Source: a virus (taxonomy: Duplodnaviria; Caudoviricetes). From it: a DNA stretch of 64,000 bases. Location: IMG/VR virus record IMGVR_UViG_3300020577_010873, positions 1-64,000 of that record; one strand, 5' to 3'. The position numbers were made by a program, and so were the translations under genes. The notes under the pieces are model-generated. The model did no database searches, was not told the origin of the DNA, and saw only the letters and a program-made list of their open reading frames with translations. Every line of letters starts with the position of its first letter. Position 1 is the stretch's first letter. Of this stretch, positions 4,808 to 52,609 are shown piece by piece.

Positions 4808-6049
4808 ATGAAAACTCAACTCACACCCGAAGAATTAGAGCGGCTACCATCCGTGCGAGACAGGTGGCTGAAGGTCGGCTTGTCCACAGGACCGTGCAAT
4901 CGAGAAAAAGCGTGGCTGGGAATTTGTGATGCGTACCGAATTGCCGGACTCAATCCTCCGCGCTTCCAAGTTTGGATGGAATCACCGTTGAAATCGGTTC
5001 TTGCGTGCTCAATCCTCGCCCACGACCAAGTCCACGCCCAAGTCCGCGACCAAGTCCTCGCCCAAGTCCGCGCCCAAGTCCGCGACCAAGTCCACGCCCA
5101 AGTCAGCGACCAAGTCCGCGACCAAGTCCACGCCCAAGTCCGCGACCAAGTCCACGCCCAAGTCATCGACCAAGTCCGCGACCAAGTCCACGCCCAAGTC
5201 CGCGACCAAGTCCTCGCCCAAGTCCGCGCCCAAGTCCGCGACCAAGTCCGCGACCAAGTCCACGCCCAAGTCATCGACCAAGTCCGCGCCCAAGTCAGCG
5301 ACCAAGTCCTCGCCCAAGTCCACGCCCAAGTCAGCGACCAAGTCCTCGCCCAAGTCCACGACCAAGTCCGCGCCCAAGTCCACGCCCAAGTCCACGCCCA
5401 AGTCCTCGACCAAGTCGGCGACTTTACTTGGGGATGGTGGAATCCTGGGCAATTCGATTCGTTTTGGCTGTCGTTTTACGATGCACTTCGCAATTACTGC
5501 GAGTTTTCAAAACTTTCTGGACTCATAGCTATCGCCGAACACAGCGCCATGGTTTGGATGTTTCGGGATGTGGTTGTTTTCTGCGAACGTCCGACCTCCA
5601 TTTCCAGAGACGAGCAACATAGGATTCACAGCGATTCCGGACCTGCGGTTGGGTTCAGTGACGGTTGGGGAGTGTGGGCTATTCACGGCGTGCGTGTTCC
5701 GAGATACGTGGTTGAATCGCCTTCTGAGATCACGGTCGAAAAAATCGAGTCGGAGAACAACGCGGAGGTCCGGCGCGTGATGATCGAACGCTACAGCACG
5801 GATCGCTACTTGCTAGATTCTAAAGCCGAGAAGATCCACGAGGACGATTTTGGTACACTGTTGCGCAAAGAAATACCCGGAGACGAACCGCTTGTGATGG
5901 TAAAGGTGGTTAATTCAACCCCCGATCCAGACGGAAGCTTCAAGGATTACTTCTTGCGCGTTCCCCCGACAATGCAACGCGCCCGAGAGGCGGTGGCGTG
6001 GACGTTTGGAGTGGAAGAATCAGATTACGAACCCGCTATCGAGACATGA
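4808..6049 (+). CDS. DUF6745-like protein with an internal tetrapeptide repeat
   Basis: RIHSDSGPAVGFSDGWGVWAIHGVRVP and VVNSTPDPDGSFKDYFLRVPP motifs. Confidence 0.8.
   Translation: MKTQLTPEELERLPSVRDRWLKVGLSTGPCNREKAWLGICDAYRIAGLNPPRFQVWMESPLKSVLACSILAHDQVHAQVRDQVLAQVRAQVRDQVHAQVSDQVRDQVHAQVRDQVHAQVIDQVRDQVHAQVRDQVLAQVRAQVRDQVRDQVHAQVIDQVRAQVSDQVLAQVHAQVSDQVLAQVHDQVRAQVHAQVHAQVLDQVGDFTWGWWNPGQFDSFWLSFYDALRNYCEFSKLSGLIAIAEHSAMVWMFRDVVVFCERPTSISRDEQHRIHSDSGPAVGFSDGWGVWAIHGVRVPRYVVESPSEITVEKIESENNAEVRRVMIERYSTDRYLLDSKAEKIHEDDFGTLLRKEIPGDEPLVMVKVVNSTPDPDGSFKDYFLRVPPTMQRAREAVAWTFGVEESDYEPAIET
5021..5416 (+). repeat. 33 tandem 12-bp units encoding (R/H/L/S/I)(D/A)QV
   Basis: CAAGTC is invariant in every unit; units counted from the translation. 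Confidence 0.95.
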
Positions 6050-9832: not shown

Positions 9833-10128
9833 AGATCATAGCAATAGTGAAGGATGAATACACCAAGACGTACATCGCGGAAGTGACGGACGACGAACTG
9901 GCCACGATTGCCGTTGGAGAATTGCGGTGCGGAGGCAATTACAGGTTCGGCGTCGGGACGGAAGTGAAGGTGGGCGACCACTGGACGCGCGTTAAAAACA
10001 TCGAATCCGCACAGGACAGGCTGAACAGTCTGGCGCAGTCGATCCGAGCGGTTGCCGACCTGCTCGGGACTATCAACGTGGTGGTTCCGCCTCAACCGCC
10101 GTCCAAATCCAACGACGACTGCAAATGA
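9829..10128 (+). CDS. Hypothetical protein
   Basis: ATGA overlap. Confidence 0.65.
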   Translation: MKIIAIVKDEYTKTYIAEVTDDELATIAVGELRCGGNYRFGVGTEVKVGDHWTRVKNIESAQDRLNSLAQSIRAVADLLGTINVVVPPQPPSKSNDDCK

Positions 10129-10277
10129 GCATGACATTCACAGTCTGGAAAAAGGTCGACGTGGAAGTGGTGGCGGTGGACTACGTGATGCTCAAGATCG
10201 ACAGCGGAGGAGTCATCACGAACTGGCCGAAGTCGCCCGACGTGTCGGCCTTCTTTCCGCGGGAGGATGAGCGATGA
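10125..10277 (+). CDS. 50-aa hypothetical protein
   Basis: MSMTFTVWKKVDVEVV...; ATGA overlaps at both ends. Confidence 0.55.
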   Translation: MSMTFTVWKKVDVEVVAVDYVMLKIDSGGVITNWPKSPDVSAFFPREDER

Positions 10278-10630
10278 GCGACATATCCCACGTCCTGTTG
10301 TGGCTCGACGGCCTGGAATACAGGAAACGGAAATCCTACTTAGCTGCGTTGGAGCAATCTAAGCAGGATCTTCACGACACCGTGCAGTCCGCGGTGAAGG
10401 TCATAGCCTTGGTCGCCGAAGTTTTGGTGGTTTCCGTAACCGAGGCACTCGACTTGCCCGCGCCCGGCGCAACCGGGGCATCCGCGAACGGAGCGCCGGC
10501 AGCCGACGGCCCAACGGGCGCCGGGTCGACGAACCGCCGGAAGAAAACCCGCCGCCACCCGATCCCGCGTGGGAAATCGGGGAAGTCACGGCCTGACTCG
10601 GGTTCACCATCGCCCGCCCCGTCGGGGTAG
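10274..10630 (+). CDS. Hypothetical protein overlapping the giant gene in antisense
   Basis: Coupled ATG; 230-bp convergent overlap. Confidence 0.45.
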   Translation: MSDISHVLLWLDGLEYRKRKSYLAALEQSKQDLHDTVQSAVKVIALVAEVLVVSVTEALDLPAPGATGASANGAPAADGPTGAGSTNRRKKTRRHPIPRGKSGKSRPDSGSPSPAPSG

Positions 10631-13600
10631 GAGTGGACGCGAGTGCCTGCGCCGCCGCCGCAACAGCCTTGGTCTCACGCACGACCTCCGGGTTCTCCAG
10701 AACTCCGGAGGTTTTCAGTTTGGCGTACTCGTCGGGCGTGACCGACCGACCGATGGCACGGGTGACGGGTTCGATCGAACTGACGGCCGACTGGACGGCC
10801 CGTTGCCCTGCCCTGTCCGCCTCGTCCTTCGCCTCGACCGGGTTAGTAAAGCCTCCGCGCTCGATCACGCGGTCGTACGCCCGCTGGTAGATCGCCTGGG
10901 CCACGCTGACGAGTCGTTTCTTTGCCGCCTCCCGGTCCTCCGGGTTGGCCTCGGAGAAGGCCAGGGCCGCGCCGAGAAGCTCCGGCTGGAGGGCCGCGTC
11001 CCGCTGGAAGGCGAAGGTGCTGGGGGCGGTTCGGCTCACCACCTGAACGCCCTGCGCGTTCGCGGCGTCACGGATGGCCGACGTGGTTTGCCGGCGTGGC
11101 GTGCCGTGGAAGAAGTTGGCGAGCACGCGACCGAGTTCACCGAACGATCCAAGGATGGACCGGGAGGCGTTGGCGGCGTCGACCTTGGCATCGACGTTCT
11201 TCCCGGTCATGACTTCCATGGTGGCGCGTGCGGCCAGAATTCCGGCCTCAGCGATCTGAAGAAGTATGCCAGGGCCGGGCGCCATGAATCCGTTGCCGGT
11301 GGCGATGCGGTCGACGCCGAGCGACTTTGCCGGGGTCTGGAGCACGTCCCAGGCGATGGCTAGGATCGGTCGATTCCACCACGACTTGTCCTTCGGGGTG
11401 AGTTGCGGGGCGGAGTTGATCTCCCAGGCCGAGACGAACCTGGCGAGGAGGTTCTGGATCCAGTCCCACAGGTCGTCGTCATCGTCCGGGGGTGAGGCGA
11501 TGGCCTCCGCCAGTTCCCGGGCGATGGTCGTCTGCACGTCGTTCATCGCCTGCCGGACGGCCACGCCGAAGTAATAGATTGCGAAGGAGGAGAGCAGCAT
11601 GGAACCCGCGGTGATGGCGGTGTTCATCAGCTTGCGGGTGGCCGATCGGTCCACCGGCTGACGGAACATATCGACCGTCCGACTGACTTCGAAGGTCATC
11701 CAGCCGAGGAGGAGGCTCCGGAGGCCACGGGCGCTCGGACGGTTGGTCCGGGTCGAGGCGTTCCACTCGCTGAGCACGGCGTTTCCGAACTTCGCTCCCA
11801 GAGGGTTAAGCCAGAACCGTCGATTGTCGATTTCCCCACGCGCCAAGGCAGCCATGAACTCCTCCGGGTGGACACCCGCCTCCCGCAGCATCTCGCGGAA
11901 GCCCGCGGAGTTCCCGATGTCGGCGTCGCCTATGGCCCACTCGCCCGTCACGTCGCCCGAGACTTCGATGTTCGCCTTGGCCAGCCGGTTGCGCCAGGAA
12001 TTGGCGATGGCGGTCATGCGCCGGAGCATCAGGGGCACCAGGGTCGTCGCGGCCATCCGGTTGAGGTGCGCGTCGGTGCCGGTGGTTCCGACCTTGCTGC
12101 CGACCGTTGACTCCAGCACCTCGCCCACCTGACCGATGCGACGGATCGTGGCGTTGCCCACGCCCCCGCCCATGTGGGCCTTCAGCCCTTCGAGTTCGGC
12201 ATAGCCGATGCGGCTACCCCACCCGATGGACTGCAACCACTCCATGACCTCCGGTGAAGTCCCAAGGCGAGGGAGATGGATGCCGACGGTCTTGCGCACC
12301 ATCCAGTCGGTCATGTTGTAGACCGCGTAGGACAGGGAGTGGAGCGTCAGTCCGAAGGCTGCCAAGTTGGCCAGAGGAGCACCGATGAGAGGAGTCAGAA
12401 TGCGCCGGGAACTCAATGGTCCACCCACCACGTTCGACAGGCCAACCCGTGGAGCGGCGAGCATGAACGGCATGAGCGCCCCAGTGAACTTCTGGAGACC
12501 GCCCGGTGAGACCGAAGGACTCTGGATGTGCGCCAAGTCCCGCTCGATCGCCTCGGCCACCGCCCGCACCTTGGTTGCCGCGCTGTTCGCCACCTCCTGC
12601 GTGACCTCCACATCGGGTCTGCTGTTGGTGAACCACCGGGCGACCGCCCGAACCTCGTCGTTCATCCGAGGATCCTGAATGTTCTTCAGGATGTCGGCGA
12701 TCGTCCGAAGGTGCTCCGCCGCGGCCTTGCCCGACCCCAACATCGAGACCTGGGAGACGTCGAGCACGTTGGACAGGGCGCCCCGCATGTCGTTGACCGA
12801 CCCGGATGCCCCGTACTCGTACATGGAACTCGGGTAGATCAGCTTCGCCGCCGGGCTGGTGAACTCGTTGGTGTCGTCCTCTCCGGTGTACGTCCCGACC
12901 CGGGTCATGGGCGTGGTGGAGTCCACGCTGGAGGCGCGGCGCGAGCGTGCGACGCGGGCGTAGACCATCAGTTCATCCGACAGGGCCTTGCGGATTGTCT
13001 CGTGCGGGCTGGCGATGCGGTTGTTCGCGTAGACCGCCAGGGCCGACACCGTGTCCTCGAAGGCCGACGCGATCGACGGGGGTGGAACCTTGCCCGACCG
13101 GATGTCCCGGGCGTACTGCTGCTCCAATTCGAGTAGAATGGGGTTGCGCTCGAACGCCAAGTCCGACCGCAGGGAGTCGAGGATGTGGAACCGAACGATG
13201 TCGGGGAATGCCACCCAGGTCTGACTCATGTCCGGGTTCTTCGGGTCAGCCCCCAGGGCTGCCTCGTAGTTCGCCGCGATCTGGCGCTCGATCTCGCTGT
13301 TGACCTTGCGGGCCAGACCGATGTCGCCAGTCTCCGCCGCCGGACGGACCAGCCGGATGCCACGGAGGTTCTCGCGGATACCGCCGTAGTCCTCGGACTG
13401 CATGATCCGCTGGGCCTCGCGGAATAGGTCGCGGTCGAACCGGAGGAGCGTCACGAGCTCCCGGGTGATCGGCTTGTTCCGGAGGCTGGTGTTCAGCAGG
13501 GTGTCGCCCACCGCCACCTTCGAACCGTGCTCGCGGTATCGGTGCGCCACCTCGGCGTAGGCGGTGGCAAGGTCCGACTGGTGGTTGGCGTTGTACGGGT

Positions 13601-16600
13601 CAAGCCCGAGCGACTCGTACGCCGAATGCAGGAGCTTCATCCGGCGGGCGTGGTTCTTCGCCGCGATGGCGTCGAGCAGGCGACCCAACCGGGCGTAGCC
13701 GGCGATGGACTCGGCGAACAGCCGGCCATGGATGCCCGGGATGAGGCGGGGCAGGATGGCTCGGATGGCGAACTCGGTCTTGGCCAGCCAGAGGTTGAAG
13801 ATCTTGTACCGGCTGGTCTTCAACAGGTTGTCCGGAGTGGAGTATGCGTCGATCGCGGCGAGTGCCTTCTCTGCCCCAACGGCCAAGCCGCGGGTGATGT
13901 GAGGCGCGTTCGGAGGGTTGGTCGGGTTGGCCTGGGCCTCCTCCACCGCCTCCTGCGCCGCCTGCCGCCACTCGATGATCTTCTGGATCACCTCGGCGGT
14001 GTACTCCTTGTTCGGACCGATGATGACGCTCTCCTGTTTCGTCCCGTCGGCTTTGATGAACTCCACGAAGTGCAGCCCGTGGGAGTTCGTGCGGTACACC
14101 ATCTCCGCCGTGCCGATGCGGTCGCCCATCTCGCCCCCCGCGAGTTCGACCGCCCTGGCTGCCAGTTGGTGCAGCATCGCGATCGAACGCTGCTCGATCT
14201 CCGCCTCCTGAATCTCCTTCTCCACCTCGGCCAATGTCGCGCTCGCCCCGCTGCGCTCAAGGCGAAGGCGTTCGAGCATGCCGCGGGCGGCAATGAATCC
14301 CTCCCGGGTCGCCCGCTCCTCCGCGTTCAGCGGTTGAGGGTGGGCCAACATACTCTCCCGCGCCGCCTCCACGCGCTCGATCACGTCCAGCATGCGCCGC
14401 TCCGACCGCGAATCCGCCTCGTCCGCCAGCATCAGCACGACGTTGCTGAATCCCATGTCGCGGTTGGCCATGTCCAGAATCTCGCGCAACACGTCATCCG
14501 TGATGCTCGCCCCCTGCGCGACCGCCCGGATCATCGCCACGTTCCGACCGAAAGCCTCGTCCGATGCGACGGGGCGCTCCTGCGAGGGTGCGCCGGCCGG
14601 AAGTTCCCCGGCTGATGCGCTGCCCATGGCGGCGAAGATGTCGCCCGAGGTCATGGCCTCGGTGAACTCCGCGGCCACGCTGTTCGGTTGGGCTTGGCCA
14701 AGGAACACCGCCAGCCGGGAGATCGCGAGCTCGCGCTCCCGCACCTGTTGGGCAACCGACCGGGAGAACAGACCGCCCGAAGCCTCGGCATCCCCGGCGA
14801 TGGAGGTGAGGAGTTCGTGGACACGCACGTCCACATCGCCCTGCTTCGACCGGAGTTCTCGGCGCCGCTGCTGGAGTTTCCGCAGGTTCTTCGCCAGCCG
14901 CTCGGACACCCGGTCCATCCGCTCCCGCATCGACCGCTGAATCTCCAGCGCGTGATGCCCGAACAGGCCGGACGCGACTTCGATGGGGGTGCGCAGGCTG
15001 GGCGACACCTCGTCCATCCCGCGGGGGATGGCACCCGACCGCTCGATCTCGTAGATCGTCTCGATCCACGGCTGGATCTCGGGCGCCGTGAGGGTCGCCC
15101 GCGCGGCCCTGGCTTCAGCCATGCCGTCGGTGGCCCGGCGGATGGAGTTGGCACGGTCGAACACCGCTGGGCGCTCGGTCTCGATGCGGTCAAGCCGTGC
15201 CTGCTGGCGGGCGATGCGGGACTTCAGGGCCTCGATCACGGACGACGATTGCTTGGTCAGGTCGCCCGAGCCGGTGCGCAGGTTCTCGTCGAGGAACCCC
15301 AGCGTCTCCCGGTTCTTGTCCAAGTTGTCCATCAGCGTGACCACCCGTCGCGCTTCAAGTTCGTCCAGCCACGTGTGGTGCGCCTGCACGTCCGACTGGT
15401 TGTGCGGGACCTGCAATGCCTCCAGTTCGGCGATGAACTGCGGGGAGTCGATGTTCAGCCGAATGCGCCGACCGCGTCCGATGGAAGCCGATTCCCCCTG
15501 CTCCGCCAGTTCTCCCAGGCGGTTCTTGATGCGCTGCCACTGGTTGTCCTCGATCGCCCGGGAGATGACTTCGTTCGCCGCATCCCGCAGGGCGTACACG
15601 TCGGACCGCAGCCCCCACACCGCGGCGTTCACGTCCGCATGGACCTGCTCCTGGGAGTCGGTGGCGAAGGTGTAGGGCGTCTCGGGGATGAAGTTCTCCG
15701 ACTGCTTGGCGATTTGACGCGCCACCCGGGCGACCACACGGGCCGTCGGCGACTCGGCACGGAACATCCGGAGGAGCGAGCGCACGAGACCGTAGCGGGT
15801 CGGTCCCTGCATGCGCTGTTCCACCAGCCGGCGGAGCACCGCCCGGCGACCAGAGGATTCACGCACGTCAACCTTCAGGGCGTCCGCCGCCCGCTTCAGC
15901 ATCTCCGGGTCGACCTTGCGGATGTCCTCCCAGGCCGAATCCCAAAAGGCTTCGGGGATGAGGTTGATGCCAGCGTCAGCCAGGGCCCCGAGGAACAACG
16001 ACCGGCGGGCGCCGCGAGTGCGGGGCAGCAGGCGGGGCACCACCACGATCTGACGGAAACCCGGGTCGTAGTAGACAGGCTCTTGAACAAGATCGTCCGG
16101 TTCGTCGCGGAACACGATCTCGGGGGCGCTCTTGTACTCGTTGCGGAACCACTGAACATCCTGCGCCAGCAGCGTCTCTCGGTTCTCGGTGGGAATGATA
16201 CTGAATTTCTGGCCATTGGCTTTCCGCTTGGCCTTAGGCTTCTTAGGTTCGGTGGATTCGGTTGTTTCGATCTCCAACTGCTTGCGCCATTGCTCGGTCA
16301 GAGTCGAACGCTGGGCATCGGCTTCGGCAGTCTTGACCGTAACTCTTGTCTTTTTATACGTCTCAGCATCCCGCATCGGCATCAGCACGTAGGCGAAGTC
16401 GGTTCCCAGGAACGACGCAGGGCCAAGCAATCCTTCGTCCGTTGCCACCCACAGGCTTTGATTCCCCATGCGAGCCGCCGCCTCAAGGCCATCGGCTAGG
16501 TAGTCGGCATTGAACGCTCCGATGATCTTCGACTTCTCCGTAACACCCGACTCGAACTCTCCAGAGTCCGGAACGATCGCCTTAACCCCGAAGTTTCCGT

Positions 16601-19600
16601 CGGAGTCCAAGAACAGTTGCATGGGTTTGGACGACGACTTCCTCTCCTCGCCAACCCAAAGTTGCAAAGCTCCACGCACCATCTTCAAAAGAACAGCCAC
16701 GTCGGCCTTCGCACGCCACTCCGGGTCGGATGGTAGGACTTGGCGCCAGTTCGGGTACTGCGCTAGGTCGGACTTCGCGCCCTTGTCGTCCACTTCGAAC
16801 TTCACTTGCTCGCCGGTTTGCGAGTTGAACTGGTGGACATCGGTGGTGCTTTCTCCCGCAGGGATGACAGCCATCTGACGACCATCGGTGGCGATGAGCA
16901 GCCCTCCGGCGTGCGCAACTCGGTTGACCACTTTGCGCGTCACATCGGTTGATGCGAACACGCCAACCACCTTGACCCGATCCGTGAACGTCTTGAGCGC
17001 CGCTTCCTTTGGGGTCGATTTCTCGGATGTCGACGCCATCTTGGGTTCGGACGAACGCCCATCGCCTTTTGGAAACCGCTTCTTCACCGTCTCCAAGAAC
17101 TTCCGCAGGGTCGGCTTGTCGTTTACCACGGTGAACACGCCGTCGCCAGGAACATCGAATGTGATGCCGGTTGGGCCTTGCCACTTGGCCTTCTTGATCT
17201 GATCCACCAGCAAAACCTGACGCTGGGAAAAGTCGAGTTCATTGGTCTTGCGTGGCACAACACCACCCGGACCTGGCTTTCCGTCAACCGCCAAGTCAAT
17301 CGTGGTGGGAGTCTTGTACTTCTCAAACAGGATTTCGATGCGACTTTGATACTTCTCCAGTGCGGATGCGTTTGCGGTCTCACGGTCGGACAAATTCTGC
17401 ATCTTCCCAGCCTCAAGCTTTGCCGCGTCCCATTCTTTCTGCGCGGCTGCGATCTCGTCGGAGTCTGGAGAACCAACCGATTCCGGAGCCTCCTCCAGAG
17501 CCTTCGTCACGGCTTCAACAAGGTACTCTTTCTGAACCTTCAACGCCTTTGCCGTGCTGGTCTTTCGCTCGTTCGAAGCCTCGGGCTTTCCTTCGACTCG
17601 TTCTTCTTTTCGAAGCTCAGATTCACCCGGGACAGGTGTCGGAGGTACGACTTCTGGAGCCGCGTGTGCCGGAGGTGCCGGCTGTGGCTGTGGCGTCTCG
17701 ATCGGTGCGGGCTCATGGGCCGCGAGCGGTGGTTGTTCAGGGGCAACATTTTGGGGTGCTGGTGTTGGTTCTGGTGTTGGCGCTGGATATGGCGTGGCCT
17801 CGACCGGAGGCAGGAGTTTCAGGCGATCCGATGCGAGCAGGTAGCGACGGCCAGAGGCATCATCGTCCACCGACACGCCCATGGCGTTCCGCTCAAGGAC
17901 AACGCCGGTTCGGCGCACTCCGTCATCGTCCCACTCGACGCGATCACCTTTGGATATGTCCTTGGTGGGAGTTGGTGCGGGCTGCGGGGTGCTTTCGGCC
18001 TTGGCCTTCTTCTGGCGGAGATGGGGAGGTGCGACGCGCTTGGGCTTGCGCCCTTTTGACTCCACGGAATCGGTAGCAGTTGTTCCTCCCTTGTCCTTGG
18101 TAGGTTCATGGGTTTCGGTCTGCCCGAGTTCGGCGTCGAGTTCGGCCTGGAGGTCAGCCTGCTCCTTCTTCTTCTGGATCTTCGCCTCCTCCTTCGGGGT
18201 GGGCGTGGGCTCCGGATGGGCCGGCGCTTCCGCCTTGGGTTCCGAAGGGGATTCGGGAGGCTTCGGAACGGGTTCGGAAGGCGTCTTCGTTTCCGACTTC
18301 GTTTCAACAGAAGGAGCTTTATTCGAAGCAGTTGCCTGTGATTCGGGCGGCTTCGTTTCCTGAGTTGGTTCGGCAACGGGAGGCGCTGGCTTTGGCGGTC
18401 CGAGCGACTTGGCATTATCTCGCGTCTCTGCCGTGCCGGAGAAGTGGGCTGGGGAGGCTCGGCGAGGCAGACCAGTGTCATCGTATGCCGGCTTCAGGAG
18501 CGGGCTATCGGATTCAAGGTCAACGTACCAGACGTTGCCACCATTCATCAGGGCATACCCTTCGGCGTAGTCGCGCGAAGCAGTCCAATCTCCTGACGCC
18601 TCTTTGAACCCGCCTCCGTGGTAGACGCGGACCTTGCCTTCAGCGATCGGAGGTTCGTCGCTTCTGGGGCGGTTCACTCCACCATCGAACGGTCGCTCGT
18701 CTTTCTGCGGAGTCGCTGGTGCGGGCGTGGATGCCTCGACCGTCGGTGCCACCGGAGGCTTAGGAGACTCGGCGGTGGCTGGGGCTGCTTTCCTGTTTTG
18801 GATCCAACGCTCGAACTCCGACGTCATGTCCATGCTTGGAATCCCAAGCTTGGAACGAACCGCAAGGACGATCGGCTTCTTATCCTGGGGTGTTGCGTAA
18901 CCGGGTACTACTATCGCGTTCGCAATCTCAAGAGCGGTTTTCCTTTGAGCTGCAAGCGACTCAATCTCGGGAACCACTCCGGCCTTTTGAGCAACGTCGA
19001 ACAGGCGTTTAATTTCATCATCAAGCCACCCAGGAAGATTCGATGGATGTGCGGATTGTGCGGGAATAGTTTCCGCACTTTGCGGAGACGCGGCCGGTGC
19101 GGCAGGAGCAGGTGTCGAAGCTGTCCCCGGCGCTGTGCCGGCCGCGTCAAGAACCGGAGGAACCGGCTGTGTTACTTCTTGGTCTTGGACTTGGGACTGC
19201 ACTTCTTGGCCATTTGGGATCACCCCCTTATTTCGAACGATACTCCGTGCCAGGATACGGCCAGCCACGGGGGCCGGTGCCGGACCGAGCTTCGGGAACC
19301 ATTCGGAAAGCTTTGCGCGGAGTCGGTCGACCGGCTCACGCCACCACTTCTTTTTCTCGTACAGATGGGCGATGTACTCCTCGGGGATGTCGCGCCCGTT
19401 GTACCGGCGGGCGAGTCCCCACACGTCATCCCGCATCTCCTGCGACCGCCCGATTTCCTGCGCGGCGAACTCGCTGATCTTCGCCTGACCCTCGGGAGTG
19501 TCCGCCGCTTGGTGAAGTCCCTCGTGCCGGGCGACCTCGCGGAGCCGCTGCGGATCACGGATGGACCCGCGGAAGAACACGACCTTCTTCGACTGCTGGT

Positions 19601-21356
19601 CGTACACACCTTCGATCTCTTGGTTGAGCCGTCCATCCGCATCCGTCGGCTGGTCGGTCGCGCGGCCGGTGAGGTTGTCCCGGTATCCCTTGCCCGGTCG
19701 GAGTTCGTACTGGTCGGGCGTGAAGTTCTCGGACTCGATGGCTTGGCGCCATGGCGCGTCAATCTGATCGCCCATCACAGCGCGGGCACGCCGAAGCTGT
19801 GGCACGCCTTGGACTGTCGGAACATCTCCCTTCGCGATGTCCTTTCCGAAGGCCATCCCGAATCCCTTGTTTACCTCGGGCGCCCGCTCGATCGCCTGCT
19901 GAAGACGCTCGACCACCGCACTATCCGGACCGAACTGCTCGATCGCCTGCTGAAGAACCTGTTGGGCATGCTGAGGATCTTCGAGTGCGCGGTTGATCTC
20001 CGCCGCCTTGAGCACCTCCGCCTCGGTTTGCTGCGCGATCTCGGCAGCCGTTGCGGTGCCCTTGGAGTATTCGAGAACTTTCTGGAGACGCAGCTTGTTG
20101 GCAAGGAGCATGGTTTGGTCGCCGCGTTGTGCCGCGACTTCCATCTTCATGCGGGCGCTCACCGCCTCGGGGATCGCCTTCTCGTCCTCCGGTCGAAGCG
20201 CCCCCTCTTTGCGAGCCGCGTCCAGTGACTCCTGCCACTGGTCGACCACACCCTTCGTAACCTCCGCTCGGAGGTTGTGCTTCGCCGCACGGATCTCCAG
20301 CGGAGTGAACCCCACGCCTCCGGTGAAACCACCGAGGAAGCTCATGAACAGATCGGTCACGAGGTCCGATACGTTGGTCATCTGCGTCGGGTCGAACAGC
20401 ATCGCCGCAGATACGTGCTGAGCCAGAGTGCTCGCGATCTCCTCCAGCCCTTCGGAGAATCCGGTGCGACCCAGCCGCTTCAGGAGAGACATTCCGCCTT
20501 CCTTGATCGCCTCCTTCAGTGCGTCGCGCGGAGCAACGTCGAAGAACTTCCGCAGCCCATCTGGAAGGAACGGCATCTTCCCGAGGAACTTCGAAGTGCG
20601 AGCCGCGGCGCTACCCAGGTATTCCGACCCAGCCTCGGCCAGAGTGGAGTTCCATGCGTGGAGATATGCCTTCTCTGGAGACGCTCCCTTGGAACGCGCC
20701 TCCTCATACGCCGGAGCGAACGTGGAGAGCGACGTGGCAAACAAGACGGGAAGTCCACCCACCGTGGCCGGAAGGGATGTGACAATTGAACCGCCGGAAC
20801 TACCAAGAAAGTCGACAGTCTGCTTCACCCCATCCGGCATTTCCGCCAATCGGTCGTCGTAATATTTGCGCTGATCTTCCGTTCCAGCCTTCGTCAGTTT
20901 CCCGTACGGTCCTTGCGTGAACCTTTCGTAGTTCTCCGCGGGATTCAGTGAAGGGGTTTTCCCGTCCATCAAATCCAAGAGGGGTTGAAGGCCGGGTAAG
21001 ATGCCGAGCGATGACCGTCCGGCGTTTGCCACAGTGCTCGAAACCGCATCAGCCGCACGATTCACCAACGCCGCGGGTAGATCAGGCACCGCACCCAACG
21101 CGGTTGTGACATTGTTCAACGTGTCGAACCCCGACTTCTGAGCGTCGGTCAGCGGGAAATCCACCGGAGGCTCTGGCTGCGGCGGAGGTCCAATCAAGTC
21201 GCCCGCCCCTTGGACGAACACCGTGTTGAGCTTCGGCATCTGCGGAAGGGTCGCCTGCCGGTGAAGTTCCGCCGCCGCTTGAACGATCTGGTCGTCCCCC
21301 ATGTCATCGGGGAAGTCGACCGGACCAACGCCTGGGACGTCGATGCGTTGTGGCAT
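10401..21356 (-). CDS. Giant internal virion/ejection protein, polyvalent type (3651 aa)
   Basis: Last of three ejection-position genes; hydrophobic Gly-rich helices; HEGLH zincin motif, ART-like YHG segment, SH3-like barrel, beta-clamp-like domain, Arg-rich C-terminus. Confidence 0.85.
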   Translation of the reverse strand: MPQRIDVPGVGPVDFPDDMGDDQIVQAAAELHRQATLPQMPKLNTVFVQGAGDLIGPPPQPEPPVDFPLTDAQKSGFDTLNNVTTALGAVPDLPAALVNRAADAVSSTVANAGRSSLGILPGLQPLLDLMDGKTPSLNPAENYERFTQGPYGKLTKAGTEDQRKYYDDRLAEMPDGVKQTVDFLGSSGGSIVTSLPATVGGLPVLFATSLSTFAPAYEEARSKGASPEKAYLHAWNSTLAEAGSEYLGSAAARTSKFLGKMPFLPDGLRKFFDVAPRDALKEAIKEGGMSLLKRLGRTGFSEGLEEIASTLAQHVSAAMLFDPTQMTNVSDLVTDLFMSFLGGFTGGVGFTPLEIRAAKHNLRAEVTKGVVDQWQESLDAARKEGALRPEDEKAIPEAVSARMKMEVAAQRGDQTMLLANKLRLQKVLEYSKGTATAAEIAQQTEAEVLKAAEINRALEDPQHAQQVLQQAIEQFGPDSAVVERLQQAIERAPEVNKGFGMAFGKDIAKGDVPTVQGVPQLRRARAVMGDQIDAPWRQAIESENFTPDQYELRPGKGYRDNLTGRATDQPTDADGRLNQEIEGVYDQQSKKVVFFRGSIRDPQRLREVARHEGLHQAADTPEGQAKISEFAAQEIGRSQEMRDDVWGLARRYNGRDIPEEYIAHLYEKKKWWREPVDRLRAKLSEWFPKLGPAPAPVAGRILARSIVRNKGVIPNGQEVQSQVQDQEVTQPVPPVLDAAGTAPGTASTPAPAAPAASPQSAETIPAQSAHPSNLPGWLDDEIKRLFDVAQKAGVVPEIESLAAQRKTALEIANAIVVPGYATPQDKKPIVLAVRSKLGIPSMDMTSEFERWIQNRKAAPATAESPKPPVAPTVEASTPAPATPQKDERPFDGGVNRPRSDEPPIAEGKVRVYHGGGFKEASGDWTASRDYAEGYALMNGGNVWYVDLESDSPLLKPAYDDTGLPRRASPAHFSGTAETRDNAKSLGPPKPAPPVAEPTQETKPPESQATASNKAPSVETKSETKTPSEPVPKPPESPSEPKAEAPAHPEPTPTPKEEAKIQKKKEQADLQAELDAELGQTETHEPTKDKGGTTATDSVESKGRKPKRVAPPHLRQKKAKAESTPQPAPTPTKDISKGDRVEWDDDGVRRTGVVLERNAMGVSVDDDASGRRYLLASDRLKLLPPVEATPYPAPTPEPTPAPQNVAPEQPPLAAHEPAPIETPQPQPAPPAHAAPEVVPPTPVPGESELRKEERVEGKPEASNERKTSTAKALKVQKEYLVEAVTKALEEAPESVGSPDSDEIAAAQKEWDAAKLEAGKMQNLSDRETANASALEKYQSRIEILFEKYKTPTTIDLAVDGKPGPGGVVPRKTNELDFSQRQVLLVDQIKKAKWQGPTGITFDVPGDGVFTVVNDKPTLRKFLETVKKRFPKGDGRSSEPKMASTSEKSTPKEAALKTFTDRVKVVGVFASTDVTRKVVNRVAHAGGLLIATDGRQMAVIPAGESTTDVHQFNSQTGEQVKFEVDDKGAKSDLAQYPNWRQVLPSDPEWRAKADVAVLLKMVRGALQLWVGEERKSSSKPMQLFLDSDGNFGVKAIVPDSGEFESGVTEKSKIIGAFNADYLADGLEAAARMGNQSLWVATDEGLLGPASFLGTDFAYVLMPMRDAETYKKTRVTVKTAEADAQRSTLTEQWRKQLEIETTESTEPKKPKAKRKANGQKFSIIPTENRETLLAQDVQWFRNEYKSAPEIVFRDEPDDLVQEPVYYDPGFRQIVVVPRLLPRTRGARRSLFLGALADAGINLIPEAFWDSAWEDIRKVDPEMLKRAADALKVDVRESSGRRAVLRRLVEQRMQGPTRYGLVRSLLRMFRAESPTARVVARVARQIAKQSENFIPETPYTFATDSQEQVHADVNAAVWGLRSDVYALRDAANEVISRAIEDNQWQRIKNRLGELAEQGESASIGRGRRIRLNIDSPQFIAELEALQVPHNQSDVQAHHTWLDELEARRVVTLMDNLDKNRETLGFLDENLRTGSGDLTKQSSSVIEALKSRIARQQARLDRIETERPAVFDRANSIRRATDGMAEARAARATLTAPEIQPWIETIYEIERSGAIPRGMDEVSPSLRTPIEVASGLFGHHALEIQRSMRERMDRVSERLAKNLRKLQQRRRELRSKQGDVDVRVHELLTSIAGDAEASGGLFSRSVAQQVRERELAISRLAVFLGQAQPNSVAAEFTEAMTSGDIFAAMGSASAGELPAGAPSQERPVASDEAFGRNVAMIRAVAQGASITDDVLREILDMANRDMGFSNVVLMLADEADSRSERRMLDVIERVEAARESMLAHPQPLNAEERATREGFIAARGMLERLRLERSGASATLAEVEKEIQEAEIEQRSIAMLHQLAARAVELAGGEMGDRIGTAEMVYRTNSHGLHFVEFIKADGTKQESVIIGPNKEYTAEVIQKIIEWRQAAQEAVEEAQANPTNPPNAPHITRGLAVGAEKALAAIDAYSTPDNLLKTSRYKIFNLWLAKTEFAIRAILPRLIPGIHGRLFAESIAGYARLGRLLDAIAAKNHARRMKLLHSAYESLGLDPYNANHQSDLATAYAEVAHRYREHGSKVAVGDTLLNTSLRNKPITRELVTLLRFDRDLFREAQRIMQSEDYGGIRENLRGIRLVRPAAETGDIGLARKVNSEIERQIAANYEAALGADPKNPDMSQTWVAFPDIVRFHILDSLRSDLAFERNPILLELEQQYARDIRSGKVPPPSIASAFEDTVSALAVYANNRIASPHETIRKALSDELMVYARVARSRRASSVDSTTPMTRVGTYTGEDDTNEFTSPAAKLIYPSSMYEYGASGSVNDMRGALSNVLDVSQVSMLGSGKAAAEHLRTIADILKNIQDPRMNDEVRAVARWFTNSRPDVEVTQEVANSAATKVRAVAEAIERDLAHIQSPSVSPGGLQKFTGALMPFMLAAPRVGLSNVVGGPLSSRRILTPLIGAPLANLAAFGLTLHSLSYAVYNMTDWMVRKTVGIHLPRLGTSPEVMEWLQSIGWGSRIGYAELEGLKAHMGGGVGNATIRRIGQVGEVLESTVGSKVGTTGTDAHLNRMAATTLVPLMLRRMTAIANSWRNRLAKANIEVSGDVTGEWAIGDADIGNSAGFREMLREAGVHPEEFMAALARGEIDNRRFWLNPLGAKFGNAVLSEWNASTRTNRPSARGLRSLLLGWMTFEVSRTVDMFRQPVDRSATRKLMNTAITAGSMLLSSFAIYYFGVAVRQAMNDVQTTIARELAEAIASPPDDDDDLWDWIQNLLARFVSAWEINSAPQLTPKDKSWWNRPILAIAWDVLQTPAKSLGVDRIATGNGFMAPGPGILLQIAEAGILAARATMEVMTGKNVDAKVDAANASRSILGSFGELGRVLANFFHGTPRRQTTSAIRDAANAQGVQVVSRTAPSTFAFQRDAALQPELLGAALAFSEANPEDREAAKKRLVSVAQAIYQRAYDRVIERGGFTNPVEAKDEADRAGQRAVQSAVSSIEPVTRAIGRSVTPDEYAKLKTSGVLENPEVVRETKAVAAAAQALASTPTPTGRAMVNPSQAVTSPISHAGSGGGGFSSGGSSTRRPLGRRLPALRSRMPRLRRARASRVPRLRKPPKLRRPRL

Positions 21357-21357
21357 G

Positions 21358-22536
21358 TCAGTAGCGGATAAGTTGTCCGGTCTTGGGGTCGAAGTATCCG
21401 ACGGATCCAGTCTTGGATACCTGTTGGGTGGTATTGGGCACCGAAACTAGGTTGAACCCGTACTGCGTCAGCAGTTCCAACAGAGGTTCGGCGTTGAAGT
21501 TGAGCGGTGGGAGTTGGGGGGTTGTCGTCCGGGGACGTGGGGTGTACGCCACCTTCTCCTTCGCCACCTGTGCCGCCTGCAAGTCGTTCAGAGCATTGCG
21601 AAGCTCCATCGCCTCTTGCGACTTCATCATGATGTTCGTCACGTCCGTAACACCCGATCCCGCCATCTGCCCCCCCTTGAGTTGGGCGACTCCGTTCGGA
21701 CCTTCGGTAACGACCAACCTCATTTCATCCGGGATGGAACCGCCGTTCACCTTCGCCGCCCTCTGGTTCCACGCCTTGGCCTCTTGCACCATGCGCTCGT
21801 TGTAGACCGATTGAGCCGACGTAAGTTTGGGGTACGCCGCGAGCATCGCGTCGGACGCGGCATTCCCCGCCTGCTTGTACGCCGCATCGTACCCGAGTTC
21901 GGAGTTGAGCTTCGACACGTCGAGTTGGTTCGAGAAGTCCTGCTGAGTCAGGCGACTCAGGCGATCGAGCAGCGCCAGCCGGTTGGCCTCCACGTCCTGC
22001 GACTGGCGCCACGCGTCGGTGCCCTCAGACCGCCGAAGCTGGGCTTGCTCAAGGTTCTGCCGAAACGCCTGCGCCGCCGACTGGAGATTGAAGTTCCGGT
22101 TCGACTCGATCTCGCGGAACTCCTGGGCGTCGTCCGCAAGCTTGGCCGACTGCATGCCACCGAAGTCGTTGCCGAAGATCCAGTTGCCCGAGGCGAATCG
22201 GTTTGCACCGCTTTCCCCTCCGGCCCGGGACAGCACGTCCGCGAGCTTGGCCACCACCTGGGCCTGCTCCTCCGGGGACTTCCGCTGGATCGTCGTGTTG
22301 TCCAGCCCGCTATAGCCGGGGAGCGAACCCACGGCGTCCGCCACCGGCTTGTAGAACGAGTAGCCCGAACTCGACGGAGTGTGCGAGGCGATGCCGATGG
22401 CCTTCACCGTGGCGATCCACTTGTTCGGGTCGGTGCCCGGCACGTACGCCGGGATGGCCACCCCCGGAACGAGGGTGTTTCGAGGCGACCCCAACCCGTG
22501 GGATTCGCTGAGATGGATGGCGTCGAGTTCGTTCAT
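21358..22536 (-). CDS. Internal virion/ejection protein
   Basis: Position between the nozzle and the giant gene; Gln/Ala-rich helical composition. Confidence 0.65.
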   Translation of the reverse strand: MNELDAIHLSESHGLGSPRNTLVPGVAIPAYVPGTDPNKWIATVKAIGIASHTPSSSGYSFYKPVADAVGSLPGYSGLDNTTIQRKSPEEQAQVVAKLADVLSRAGGESGANRFASGNWIFGNDFGGMQSAKLADDAQEFREIESNRNFNLQSAAQAFRQNLEQAQLRRSEGTDAWRQSQDVEANRLALLDRLSRLTQQDFSNQLDVSKLNSELGYDAAYKQAGNAASDAMLAAYPKLTSAQSVYNERMVQEAKAWNQRAAKVNGGSIPDEMRLVVTEGPNGVAQLKGGQMAGSGVTDVTNIMMKSQEAMELRNALNDLQAAQVAKEKVAYTPRPRTTTPQLPPLNFNAEPLLELLTQYGFNLVSVPNTTQQVSKTGSVGYFDPKTGQLIRY

Positions 22537-23271: not shown

Positions 23272-24027
23272 TTAAACGAGTTCGGCGAAAGCGTGGGTGA
23301 GTTTCACGGGACGGCCCAAGATGTCCTCCAGCCAAGTTACGCACGACACGTGCTCGATGGAGCCGGCGGCGATGCTGCCCTCGGGGATTGGTGGAGGGGT
23401 TGCGCGGGGGAGCGGCGACCGCTGGAACACCACCTTCTGCACCAAGTTCGAGGAGTCGATTCCGCCGTGAAGCGGTGCGTTCTGCGGAACCAGCGTCACC
23501 CGAAGCACGGGGAACAGGATGTCCGACTGGCGGGACTTCCACGCCGCCGGAACCGGCCACCCGGTGGTGTTGTACGAGCGCACGCCCTGCACGTCGACGT
23601 ACGGGGTGTCGACCGGAGGCACCGAGTATTGCACTTCGACCAGCGTGTCGACCGTGCTGATGCTGCCGTAGCGCCCGCTGTCCACCGGACCAACGGAGAT
23701 GGGCCACAAGCCGCTTCCGAAGGTGGTGACGAGCGACAGGCGAGACGCCTTCTCCAGCCCGCTGACGCGCGTCCACCCCAGCCGTTCGCTCGACGCTGTG
23801 GATGCCCCGGAGGCCAGCCGTTGCCGGGGGGTGGTGAGCGCCTGGACGCCTCGCCCCGGGTGAATCGGTGCGCCGCCCGAGGACTGCGCGATCTTCACCT
23901 GGGCCGACCACGCCTTCACGCGCCGGTCGTACTCGGTGAACACCGCGGTCAATCCTCCAGGGATCCCCGCACGGTAACAATCCGTTAGGGACGGTGGATC
24001 GGGGATGTTAATGATCGTCGGGTTCAT
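23272..24027 (-). CDS. Putative tail-associated protein
   Basis: ATGA overlap with the nozzle gene. Confidence 0.6.
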   Translation of the reverse strand: MNPTIINIPDPPSLTDCYRAGIPGGLTAVFTEYDRRVKAWSAQVKIAQSSGGAPIHPGRGVQALTTPRQRLASGASTASSERLGWTRVSGLEKASRLSLVTTFGSGLWPISVGPVDSGRYGSISTVDTLVEVQYSVPPVDTPYVDVQGVRSYNTTGWPVPAAWKSRQSDILFPVLRVTLVPQNAPLHGGIDSSNLVQKVVFQRSPLPRATPPPIPEGSIAAGSIEHVSCVTWLEDILGRPVKLTHAFAELV

Positions 24028-25793
24028 TCGACGGCGTTGGTGCTTCGGGCCACCCCGGCTTCCATGCGCGAGAACTGGACGGGACCACCCACCAGCGGTT
24101 CGATCCGCAGGTCGAACCACACGAACCGGCCCTCCAGCTTGAAGTTCCACCGGGCGGGCTTGGTCGACGGGGTGACGTTCGGCACCACCGGAGGCCCCTG
24201 GAGGGTGCGGGTGCTCAGTTGGATCAGCTTGTACGACACGTCGCCCAGGGCCAGCGGGTCGACCGGGGTGCCGGACAGGCCGACGTACAGCGTGAGGGTG
24301 GCCGGCGTGTCGGTCGATCGGGCCAGGAAGTCCACGAGCAACTGGGAAACGGTCTTAGCCATCGACAGCCCGAAGTTGGTGGGCGCCGTGACCAGCCGGC
24401 AGCCGTAGGCGTCCGTCACCCAGCCGTCGGCGGTGCGGCGCTCCATGCCGTAGAAGTCGGCGTCGAAGATCTTCACCGCGTTGTCCGACGCCGTGACAGC
24501 CACGACCACACCATCCCCGGCGCACGAGACCTCGCACGGGTGGTTGAACAGATCGCACGGACCGGCGGTGCGCTCGGCCGCGGGCAGGATTCGGGCGTCG
24601 TCCCTGGGACCGAGCGGGAAGTTCGCGTCGATTCCAGCCGAGTCGCACAGCCCATTTCGGGTCAGCCACATTGCGAAGTCGTCGCTCCGGTCGATGTGGC
24701 CAGAGATGATGGCGTTGAATCCCGCGGTCTTGATCGCCGTCGACTGCTCCCGGGTGTTGATCACGTACGTCTGGCCAAGTTCGGCGGAGGAGAACAGGAG
24801 TTCATGCCGAGTCGGGTCGTACTCCGCGGCGGAGATGCGACACGAGCCGCCTCCCAGGAACTCCTCGGGCAACCCCTTGTTCACCCACTCCACCCACTCC
24901 GGGGCCGACGAGTAGGGCGACAGCGCGTAGATGCCGTCGACCGCCATGAAGAACACGATCTCCCGATTGCAGGCGAATGCCGTGGGACTGACCAAACAGG
25001 CGTCGCGCTTCGAGTGGTAGTAGAGTTGCTGGAACGAGAACGAACCATCGTCGCCCACTCCGAGACGCCACGCCCCATGGGTGGTGAGGATGAGGAACAG
25101 CGTCCCGCACGCGACGGCGCCCAGCACTTCCTCGCCCGTGTTGAGGTCGCGGAACCCCGCGATGCTGTCGTCCCCGACCGAGAAGTCGACGGAGTCGGGA
25201 TTGCCCCACAGCACCCGGTTTCCCACCCGGTGCCCGTCCATCACCACGTTGGCCACGAACGGGCAGCCCTGGTAGGACCAGCAGACGGACGCGCCGGTTA
25301 CACCGATGGCCGTAAGCGTCTCGATCTCCGAGAACTGACCGATGCCCACCCGCTGCCACCGCACGTCCACGCCGTTGCCCGCCACCACCGCCGCGCTGGT
25401 GCTGCCGAAGCTCCACCGCCCGCCGCCCGTCCGGGTCGTCCCGCCGCAGTTGGTCCACCCCCCGTCCATCCGGTTCATCCAGATGTCCGACCCGGCCCCG
25501 GCGAACAGCCGGACACCGCTGGAGTTCCGGGTGTTCGGCTGGTGCAGATGCAACGACGTGATGGGATTCGACGCCCCGTGCTGGTCGTGCAAGTCGCAGT
25601 TCGGGTGGGTCGTCCAGTGGCCAAACCGGCGCCATCCGCTCATGCGGGCCAGCCGGCCAGCCTGGGGGGCGGTGAAGTTCTGGACGTGCCGCCAGCGTCC
25701 CCACGGGACAGCGTCGACCGCCGACTGACGGTCCATCGGGGCCGTCATCGACGGCCAGACAATCGGCTTCTGCCCTGTTTGGGAGAGGATCAT
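24024..25793 (-). CDS. Tail nozzle/stabilisation protein (P22 gp10/T7 gp12-like)
   Basis: 589 aa with repeated beta-propeller-like blades (VFFMAVDGIYAL, LLFSS); genomic position. Confidence 0.7.
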   Translation of the reverse strand: MILSQTGQKPIVWPSMTAPMDRQSAVDAVPWGRWRHVQNFTAPQAGRLARMSGWRRFGHWTTHPNCDLHDQHGASNPITSLHLHQPNTRNSSGVRLFAGAGSDIWMNRMDGGWTNCGGTTRTGGGRWSFGSTSAAVVAGNGVDVRWQRVGIGQFSEIETLTAIGVTGASVCWSYQGCPFVANVVMDGHRVGNRVLWGNPDSVDFSVGDDSIAGFRDLNTGEEVLGAVACGTLFLILTTHGAWRLGVGDDGSFSFQQLYYHSKRDACLVSPTAFACNREIVFFMAVDGIYALSPYSSAPEWVEWVNKGLPEEFLGGGSCRISAAEYDPTRHELLFSSAELGQTYVINTREQSTAIKTAGFNAIISGHIDRSDDFAMWLTRNGLCDSAGIDANFPLGPRDDARILPAAERTAGPCDLFNHPCEVSCAGDGVVVAVTASDNAVKIFDADFYGMERRTADGWVTDAYGCRLVTAPTNFGLSMAKTVSQLLVDFLARSTDTPATLTLYVGLSGTPVDPLALGDVSYKLIQLSTRTLQGPPVVPNVTPSTKPARWNFKLEGRFVWFDLRIEPLVGGPVQFSRMEAGVARSTNAVE

Positions 25794-31216: not shown

Positions 31217-32251
31217 TCAACAGCGATTGAGCACGAGGTGGCCTTTGACCAGCCTCTTGTCCGACCGGAGGTACGCCTTGTAGAAGCCGCGGTCGAACAC
31301 CAGATTGTACTCCACCCGCAGCCGTCCGACGCTCCCGGCCTCCGTCACGGTGAAGCTCAGGATCGCCCCGCCCACCTCCATCCGAAGCCGCTTCTTCCGC
31401 GCGAACACCGTCTGGTCCTGAAACCCCGGCATGTTGATCACGTGGACGTTTCGGTCGACCATGTAGTTCGAGACGTGGTAGTGGCCTTGCACGAGGATCT
31501 GCGGCTTCTCACCTCCACCCAAGGACTCGACCTGCTTCTGACCCGCGTATGATCTTGCGTAGGCTGCCCCTCCGCCTGGGTGTTGCACCTTGATCCGGAC
31601 GATCCCGTGCTTTGTCGTCACGTCCACGTCAGCCTCGACGTGGCCGAGGTAGCGGAGGTCCGATCGTCCGGACTTCTCGGCCAACCCCTGGAGGTAGGCG
31701 CCGAAGTTGAACCCCTCCTTCTGCCACCACCCCTCGTGATCGTCCCCGGTGATAAAGTGCGTGGTGATGCCCTTCCTAGCCGGGTAGTTGTCCACCACGT
31801 ACAGGGCTTGGTCGTCGATGCCAGAGACGATCACCGAGGCACCGTTGATCCGCGGGATGTAGCCGTCGACGATGTTGCCCGCGTGGAGGACGGTCGTGAT
31901 TCCCTCGGCGGCGAACAGGTCGTACTGCGCGTGAAGCGCGTCCAGGCGTTGCTCTTTGCAGCACAGGTGGGTGTCGGCCACGAGTCCGATGTGGATCCAC
32001 TCGCCGTGCCGCAGGAATTTCAGCGGGAGGTATCCGAACTCCGGCTTCTCCAGCGAAAGGAACGCACCATTGGAGAACACCTTGGTCTCCTTCTCCAGCA
32101 GCCGGAGTGCCGCGGTGAGCGTCCGGGAGTCGCACCCCAGGCCAGCCTCCAGCGATGCGGGCGTGCATGGGCCCTTCGACAGCGCACGCTTGAGCAGGGG
32201 AAGGATGTCCTTGGCCGTCCGCTTCTTCGGCAGGAGGTCGTCGATTCTCAT
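31217..32251 (-). CDS. Calcineurin-like metallophosphoesterase with an N-terminal wHTH
   Basis: ADTH, HAGNIVDG, GDDH, HPGGG and GHYH motifs. Confidence 0.85.
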   Translation of the reverse strand: MRIDDLLPKKRTAKDILPLLKRALSKGPCTPASLEAGLGCDSRTLTAALRLLEKETKVFSNGAFLSLEKPEFGYLPLKFLRHGEWIHIGLVADTHLCCKEQRLDALHAQYDLFAAEGITTVLHAGNIVDGYIPRINGASVIVSGIDDQALYVVDNYPARKGITTHFITGDDHEGWWQKEGFNFGAYLQGLAEKSGRSDLRYLGHVEADVDVTTKHGIVRIKVQHPGGGAAYARSYAGQKQVESLGGGEKPQILVQGHYHVSNYMVDRNVHVINMPGFQDQTVFARKKRLRMEVGGAILSFTVTEAGSVGRLRVEYNLVFDRGFYKAYLRSDKRLVKGHLVLNRC

Positions 32252-32538
32252 TCGGACCCCTTCTTCGCGCTGGCGATTGTGGCCTTCGATCCCCACCACC
32301 ACCGGCCTCGGTGCCTGATCCGATTTCCCTCCAGCAACTTGTGCGTCCGGCCCTCGTTGAACCTCGAAACGGCGTACCCCACGCGGTTGCGAAGCTCCTC
32401 CGAGTTGACGACGTTCCCCCTTGTAACCTTCTCCGCCGCCTCGGCGATCCGCTTCACCACTTCCGGAATCACTCCGGCAAGCACGTCATCGAGTTTGAGT
32501 TCCGTAGGGTTTGGTTTGGTCTTCGATGGTTTTGACAT
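32248..32538 (-). CDS. Hypothetical basic protein
   Basis: ATGA overlap with the downstream gene. Confidence 0.55.
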   Translation of the reverse strand: MSKPSKTKPNPTELKLDDVLAGVIPEVVKRIAEAAEKVTRGNVVNSEELRNRVGYAVSRFNEGRTHKLLEGNRIRHRGRWWWGSKATIASAKKGSE

Positions 32539-45606: not shown

Positions 45607-45822
45607 ATGAAGACTGTCCTTCCCGCGTCCGCCGCTTCCGCCCTGGGCTTGGCTGTGGTGGGCGACGAAATCGAGCTTACGGTGTCCGCGGTGAACCCCG
45701 ACGGTTCGGTCGAGGTGGAGTCCTACGCCGACACTCCGGCGGAAGATGCGGCTACGTCGTCCGAGCCGCCGAAAGCGATTGGACCGGCGGACCTACCGAT
45801 GCCTCCCATGACCTACGCGTAA
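45607..45822 (+). CDS. Small acidic protein antisense to the late operon
   Basis: 71 aa, VGDEIELTVSAVNPDGSVEV; fills the TerL-MCP gap. Confidence 0.55.
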   Translation: MKTVLPASAASALGLAVVGDEIELTVSAVNPDGSVEVESYADTPAEDAATSSEPPKAIGPADLPMPPMTYA

Positions 45823-52461: not shown

Positions 52462-52596
52462 CCCGCGGGTCACGTGGGTCGCACCAGTTTCGGGAGTGCG
52501 AGTGTCCATGTCCACGCTACCGGCACCCGAGCATACGCGGGCGCATCAGAGACAACGGGCCTCATCTCTGGCCGGGCAATCCCGAAACCGAGGCCC
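52462..52596 (+). ncRNA. Candidate multi-pseudoknot RNA 5' of the RNA ligase
   Basis: Six complementary segments, including a 9-bp loop pairing GTTTCGGGA/TCCCGAAAC. Confidence 0.5.
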
Positions 52597-52609
52597 AAAC
52601 TTTCCTTCC

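Follow-up and report, generated by a model that had tools for sequence, protein, structure and literature searches.

In bacterial replication and repair, the beta sliding clamp (DnaN) serves as the central docking hub, and it is also a target for antibiotics. What is a part of this protein doing in the middle of a giant phage protein, and which of the activities of a clamp could it still perform there? The question is raised by a 64,000-bp window of tailed-phage DNA, the first 64 kb of the 73,988-bp linear IMG/VR virus record IMGVR_UViG_3300020577_010873 (completeness estimate 69%). Here, the final gene of a minus-strand virion arm is an open frame without stops that encodes a protein of 3651 residues (P0001; positions 10401-21356, minus strand), and an original prediction made from the letters of the DNA had placed a DnaN-like domain within it, describing the whole as a virion ejection protein. 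We find that residues 1453-1663 of this protein (16368-17000, minus strand) genuinely descend from the bacterial beta sliding clamp and correspond to Escherichia coli DnaN 131-365 with a deletion of ~40 residues, and that the ring-forming parts of the clamp have been lost from it. Judged by column conservation within the family, the residues lining the clamp-binding-motif (CBM) pocket have been under strong purifying selection.

A descendant of the beta sliding clamp within a giant phage protein

The DnaN-like strings quoted in the original prediction are present in the claimed order, at residues 1467-1480, 1488-1496, 1533-1542, 1611-1624 and 1654-1662 (window positions 16371-16958). When the protein was compared with the PDB as a single sequence, every one of the top six matches was a beta clamp (best E 2e-3), the alignments falling on its C-terminal domain and the closing MPMR, and PHROG 947 ('DNA polymerase processivity factor') matched residues 1533-1665 at E 9e-7 over profile positions 238-367 of 368. 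Pfam scans of the whole protein and of residues 1440-1680 returned no DnaN family (PF00712, PF02767 or PF02768) up to E 1, and a search of the whole phage record with PF02768, the only DnaN family searched for directly, gave no match. A family profile was then built from 13 aligned relatives of the module, with DnaN itself excluded. This DnaN-free profile matched the E. coli clamp in the PDB at E 2.5e-22 over two stretches (DnaN 133-197 and 237-366), and hhalign against an alignment of seven DnaN-sized proteins gave a probability of 99.9 and E 2e-33.

The fold agrees with the sequence comparisons. An AlphaFold2 model generated from the 13-sequence alignment had a predicted local distance difference test score (pLDDT) of 89.4 and a predicted template modelling score (pTM) of 0.87. 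With this model as query, the top Foldseek matches were exclusively beta clamps (E about 1e-12, template modelling score 0.70), and VIA-align placed P0001 1453-1662 on DnaN 131-365 with Z 19.6, a root-mean-square deviation of 3.2 Å and 189 residues aligned. The DnaN-like domain that had been proposed is thus borne out by the profile, hhalign and VIA-align comparisons, and the clamp fold on which that proposal depended was found in the Foldseek and VIA-align comparisons.

The module nevertheless differs from a whole clamp in what it has kept. The remnant of domain II spans residues 1453-1532 (16761-17000, minus strand), with profile positions 16-74 aligned to DnaN 133-197, and it retains helix 1 and three strands bearing the STD.TR and ATDGR motifs (in the model, helix at positions 7-15 and strand at 29-49). 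The second half of this domain is modelled by AlphaFold2 as short strands only, without the helix, and E. coli DnaN 182-207 and 226-237, the portions that hold the second half of domain II including this helix, have no counterpart in the family. The missing helix is one of those that line the channel. Domain III is complete, running from YPNWRQVLP to VLMPMR at residues 1533-1663 (16368-16760, minus strand; profile positions 92-218 on DnaN 237-366). The earlier assignment of the segment to domains II and III therefore holds in full for domain III and only for the first half of domain II. For domain I there was no significant match, the upstream region alone giving E 0.18 against DnaN by hhalign.

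The dimer interface is not conserved either. The equivalents of its core residues I272 and L273 rank 150 and 101 of 196 columns in conservation and are occupied by mixtures of A/V/E and L/M/V, respectively, and the acidic interface positions near them are variable as well. With no recognisable domain I, half of domain II deleted and a variable I272/L273 core, the module therefore lacks the requirements for ring closure.

Relatives and the extent of the conserved cassette

When 1.84 billion cluster representatives (50% identity clusters) were searched exhaustively with HMMER, 147 proteins matched the module at E below 1e-3. Nearly all of them are 1200-5700 residues long and match over 200-230 residues in mid-chain; giant phage proteins with the module make up over 130 clusters. 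The remainder include a handful of DnaN-sized proteins (357-367 residues) whose matching part begins near residue 120 or 240 and extends to the C-terminus, and a stand-alone form of 242 residues (P0080) lies on a 1.5-kb contig that offers no usable gene context. The ten giant relatives that were examined at the DNA level are on phage-like contigs, one of the genes adjoining an SU10-type portal gene, and precomputed Pfam hits flag PF02768 on several of the ten. In 19 further relatives Pfam detected InPase, LPD1, LPD5, LPD38 and Kinase-PolyVal domains, all of them signature families of phage polyvalent proteins, with PF02768 in three, and LPD38 was located near the C-terminus of two other relatives. 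In the relative P0021, PF02768 scores 45 bits against a curated cut-off of 27.

When the whole 3651-residue protein was compared with its relatives using phmmer, only residues 1200-1700 were held in common. The module is therefore a cassette shuffled among otherwise unrelated giant polyvalent proteins of tailed phages. Searches in other collections were less productive: tblastn against 50,697 deposited phages gave no match, neither a single-protein search of viral contigs nor a search of 185,579 genomes with a three-sequence alignment returned relatives, and a word-indexed protein search returned only one 98% twin and one distant match.

The G+C content along the giant gene is uneven. It lies at 0.59-0.61 over positions 16001-22000, which encode the N-terminal half of the protein including the clamp cassette, compared with 0.65-0.67 over positions 10001-16000, which encode the C-terminal half. 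Because only residues 1200-1700 are common to the relatives, the lower value of the N-terminal half fits exchange of the cassette among phages.

The conserved unit is larger than the clamp segment. The extent originally predicted does contain clamp sequence, but conservation continues N-terminally to form a cassette of ~400 residues around the module, starting near residue 1268, with two additional elements. The first is a helix motif at residues 1268-1294 (17475-17555, minus strand; consensus K.QK.[YF]LL..[LI]D.AI..APE), which is present in 101 of about 137 polyvalent-type representatives, where it lies 45-180 residues N-terminal of the module and in one case directly abuts it; it is predicted with moderate confidence to form a long helix. 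The second is a hairpin followed by a helix at residues 1397-1429 (17070-17168, minus strand; I.I.VPGDG.FT.VN ... FP), separated from the clamp module by a Pro-rich linker. This VPGDG element occurs in many relatives, and its P, G, D, G, F, N, F and P columns are invariant in two family alignments.

In a structural model of residues 1180-1670 the clamp part is confident and the upstream part is of low to moderate confidence, the latter comprising three long helices followed by a strand-strand-helix-strand-strand-helix arrangement. A long hhalign alignment matches the VPGDG hairpin to the final strands of domain I (DnaN 80-118). The helix motif and the hairpin may be remnants of domain I, or they may be partners of the pocket, and the cassette as a whole may be a heavily eroded clamp, although we do not claim the last of these. 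Nor do we claim the upstream region as DnaN domain I: the hhalign value obtained with that region alone is not significant, and protein-atlas scores of 0.86 or lower are leads only.

One of the relatives' contigs (L003) also encodes a protein of the Acb2/Tad1-hairpin family (5229-5591), a family of anti-CBASS/Thoeris sponges, together with a Lar restriction-alleviation gene. Both genes lie a few kb upstream of the clamp-bearing giant gene.

The clamp-binding-motif pocket and its possible ligands

The CBM pocket of the E. coli clamp comprises subsite I, formed by R152, L155, T172, G174, H175, R176, L177, P242, R246, V247, V360 and M362, and subsite II, formed by H175, N320, Y323, V344, M362, P363, M364 and R365 (PMC11139829). 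Column entropy was calculated for the positions equivalent to these 18 published residues and for the other 178 columns, using 132 polyvalent-type or stand-alone representatives with a median pairwise identity of 27.5%. The median entropy was 1.27 bits for the pocket columns and 2.77 bits for the others (Mann-Whitney p 6e-8), and pocket residues account for eight of the 20 most conserved columns (hypergeometric p 6.5e-5). The conservation ranks of the E. coli equivalents are 1 for R152, 2 for P242, 3 for G174, 4 for T172, 6 for M362 and 8 for P363. In the window protein itself, 12 of the 18 pocket residues are identical to those of E. coli and the other six are conservative substitutions; these include H175R and R246Q, each the common state in other DnaNs. 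The proposal that the segment covers the part of the clamp that carries the CBM pocket is therefore upheld at the level of individual residues. The chain of the giant protein runs on past MPMR, a C-terminal extension that is also present in the solved clamp-MutL fusions 6E8D and 6E8E; because it is tolerated there, it is compatible with a working pocket.

The reading that we favour is that the module acts as a monomeric docking pocket rather than as a clamp that encircles DNA. According to this reading, the giant protein would enter the cell together with the phage DNA, and its pocket would then bind the short CBM peptides carried by host proteins, for example Pol III alpha, the clamp-loader subunit delta, translesion polymerases, MutS/MutL, Hda or ligase. 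These clients would either be titrated off the host clamp, making the module a decoy, or be held at the incoming phage genome, making it a recruiter. We put the probability that an injected, ringless, clamp-derived pocket captures host clamp clients in one of these two ways at roughly 55%. Packaging and injection of the giant protein we infer from gene order and from the polyvalent-protein domains of its relatives.

Two observations bear on the identity of the ligand. The chemistry of the pocket is still that of cellular clamps, as would be expected if its ligands were host CBMs. Moreover, no canonical CBM was found in the predicted proteins of the window, and 125 giant relatives showed no CBM enrichment (2 observed versus 1 expected; 8 versus 8.5). 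A built-in canonical ligand is thereby weakly disfavoured, and the phage itself probably does not supply the ligand.

Delta binds monomeric beta about 50-fold tighter than the dimer, and a monomer cannot tether Pol III (PMC11139829). A delivered monomeric pocket is therefore plausible as a sink or as a recruiter. We propose more tentatively, as less likely than not, that an injected mimic of the hub site might outcompete the host clamp for delta, Pol III alpha or repair polymerases before phage genes are expressed. If this were the case, host replication and repair would be stalled, or the host replisome handed to the phage genome, ahead of any phage gene expression, and the module would represent a class of phage takeover effector that is widespread, with more than 130 protein clusters, and has so far gone undescribed.

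Several points weigh against the docking of host clients. The pocket sits at the junction of domains II and III, so that part of its conservation could reflect a folding constraint rather than ligand binding. The pocket's true ligand could be a non-canonical one, the conserved helix motif that lies upstream. As the record is an estimated 69% complete, the missing part of the genome could encode a phage polymerase or a phage protein with a CBM. Finally, the window protein matches no Pfam polyvalent-protein family, and the case for packaging and injection rests on synteny and on relatives.

If the pocket were instead to bind a phage peptide, either the upstream helix motif (within one chain or head-to-tail between chains) or a motif of a co-packaged protein, the module would be an assembly or tethering device for the giant protein or for cargo. 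Physical coupling is suggested by the persistence of the helix motif alongside the module in 101 of the about 137 representatives despite linkers that vary from 45 to 180 residues, and the motif does contain a Gln followed by paired hydrophobic residues. However, the prediction for it is a long helix and not a peptide in extended form, its spacing is unlike that of QL[SD]LF or QLxLxL, and about a quarter of the family is without it. The lack of canonical CBMs among the predicted phage proteins and of CBM enrichment in the giant proteins also argues against a phage ligand, as does the retention of pocket residues as in cellular DnaN, which is expected if the module shares its ligands with the host clamp. 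We regard a phage ligand as unlikely, while taking it seriously. That the clamp fold survives only as a structural relic, serving as a rigid spacer or capsid-internal scaffold around a pocket without a ligand, appears improbable to us. In keeping with a relic, much of the clamp has been lost, the giant protein is unrecognisable outside the module, and structural reasons can account for conservation where two domains meet; yet the surface residues M362, P363, T172, P242 and V247 of the pocket are among the most conserved positions while many core-facing positions vary, and the module persists in more than 130 clusters that otherwise share little.

A further alternative is that the module targets the host clamp directly, pairing its domain III with domain I of a host beta protomer so as to cap opened clamps or form dead-end mixed oligomers, in effect a clamp poison. 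Domain III, which contributes half of the natural dimer interface, is complete, and there is precedent for phages that target the clamp, Twort Gp168 by blocking its channel (PMC8565349) and MuC of phage Mu by using it (PMC12867686). Selection has nevertheless acted on the pocket and not on the interface, given the low ranks of the I272/L273 equivalents (150 and 101) and the variation of the nearby acidic positions, and we consider poisoning of this kind quite improbable. Alternatively, the module could still work as a sliding clamp, with several copies, or one copy that uses the upstream elements as its decayed domain I, forming a ring around phage DNA. In its favour, the hhalign alignment reaches back to DnaN residue 80, with the VPGDG hairpin on the last domain I strands, and the upstream helix motif resembles, by eye only, the strand-helix start of clamp domains. 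A two-domain form of the E. coli clamp, beta*, has reportedly been found to act as a clamp. Set against this are the E of 0.18 for the upstream region alone versus DnaN, the lack of an informative match for that region in the protein atlas, the loss of one channel-lining helix of domain II, the unconserved interface residues and the low to moderate confidence of the upstream model, and a working clamp seems to us the least credible of these explanations, with very little weight attached to it.

The favoured docking pocket can be placed among known systems by what it shares with each of them. In sequence and fold it is like DnaN (E. coli 2POL/1MMI; PF00712, PF02767, PF02768) over residues 131-365, including the CBM pocket residues, but it lies mid-chain in a 3651-residue phage protein and has no recognisable domain I, whereas DnaN is a free homodimer of 366-residue subunits. 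Like the monomeric I272A/L273A variant of beta, it should present the pocket without tethering polymerase to DNA (PMC11139829). From the full-length phage clamps of PHROG 947 it differs in that only positions 238-367 of the 368 are matched and in that it is a fragment fused within a protein of the virion block, not a gene of a replication module. Twort Gp168 (PMC8565349) and MuC (PMC12867686) act on the same hub, the clamp and its partners, and have no sequence relationship to the module; they bind the host clamp, whereas the module would imitate the docking site of the clamp and bind its partners. If injected, a ringless copy of the docking pocket would thus constitute a third phage strategy, imitation of the hub to capture its clients, besides blocking the clamp (Twort Gp168) and borrowing it (Mu).

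Polyvalent proteins (Iyer, Burroughs, Anand, de Souza, Aravind 2017, PMC5512222) are likewise giant, multi-module and encoded with virion genes. The relatives that share the cassette carry LPD1, LPD5, LPD38, InPase and Kinase-PolyVal, whereas the window protein has only an HEGLH motif. The main text of that survey mentions no clamp, DnaN, processivity factor or PCNA domain (PMC5512222), and in full-text literature searches no polyvalent, internal-virion or ejection protein was reported to contain a clamp domain. The clamp module is an addition to the polyvalent-protein domain inventory as given in that main text. It is common in uncultured phages, small and confidently folded, with a clear set of pocket mutants, which makes the idea directly testable, and natural high-affinity variants of the pocket could help in the study of clamp-motif recognition.

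The giant gene and its phage

The giant open reading frame has a G+C content at third codon positions (GC3) of 0.77, similar to that of the adjacent genes. Upstream of it, the minus-strand arm includes a virion structural protein gene (24024-25793), a tailspike gene (36591-40556) and one or more genes for tail-like proteins, and the arm also contains the large terminase gene terL (45813-47405). Past the virion arm lie genes for an integrase, RecT, a PDDEXK nuclease, SSB, an RNA ligase, an HNH protein and a DnaB helicase. Searches of the whole 74-kb record, itself only ~69% of the estimated genome, found no family A, family B or Pol III alpha polymerase. With integrase, RecT, SSB and DnaB present and no polymerase found, the phage therefore looks temperate and reliant on the host replicase, although this conclusion comes from an incomplete record.

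Outside the clamp module, the giant protein has no credible Pfam or PHROG match, whether scanned whole or as five fragments. The original prediction had also referred to a zincin within it. The HExxH motif is indeed present, as HEGLH at residues 611-615 (19512-19526, minus strand), but it stands as a motif only: the region has no Pfam or PHROG metallopeptidase match in scans of the whole protein and of fragments.

At its other end the giant protein is very basic. Its last 45 residues (10401-10540, minus strand) contain 18 Arg/Lys (RRPLGRRLP...RRPRL) and come after a Gly/Ser run; this could be a DNA-binding or packaging tail.

Two genes of the virion arm encode calcineurin-like metallophosphoesterase domains (40553-42625 and 31217-32302, both minus strand), which is unusual among structural genes; the families matched are PF00149 at E 9e-12 and PF12850 at E 2e-5. 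In the early region, between RecT and the PDDEXK nuclease, the RNA ligase-like gene (52496-53545, plus strand) matches PHROG 968 at E 1.7e-49.

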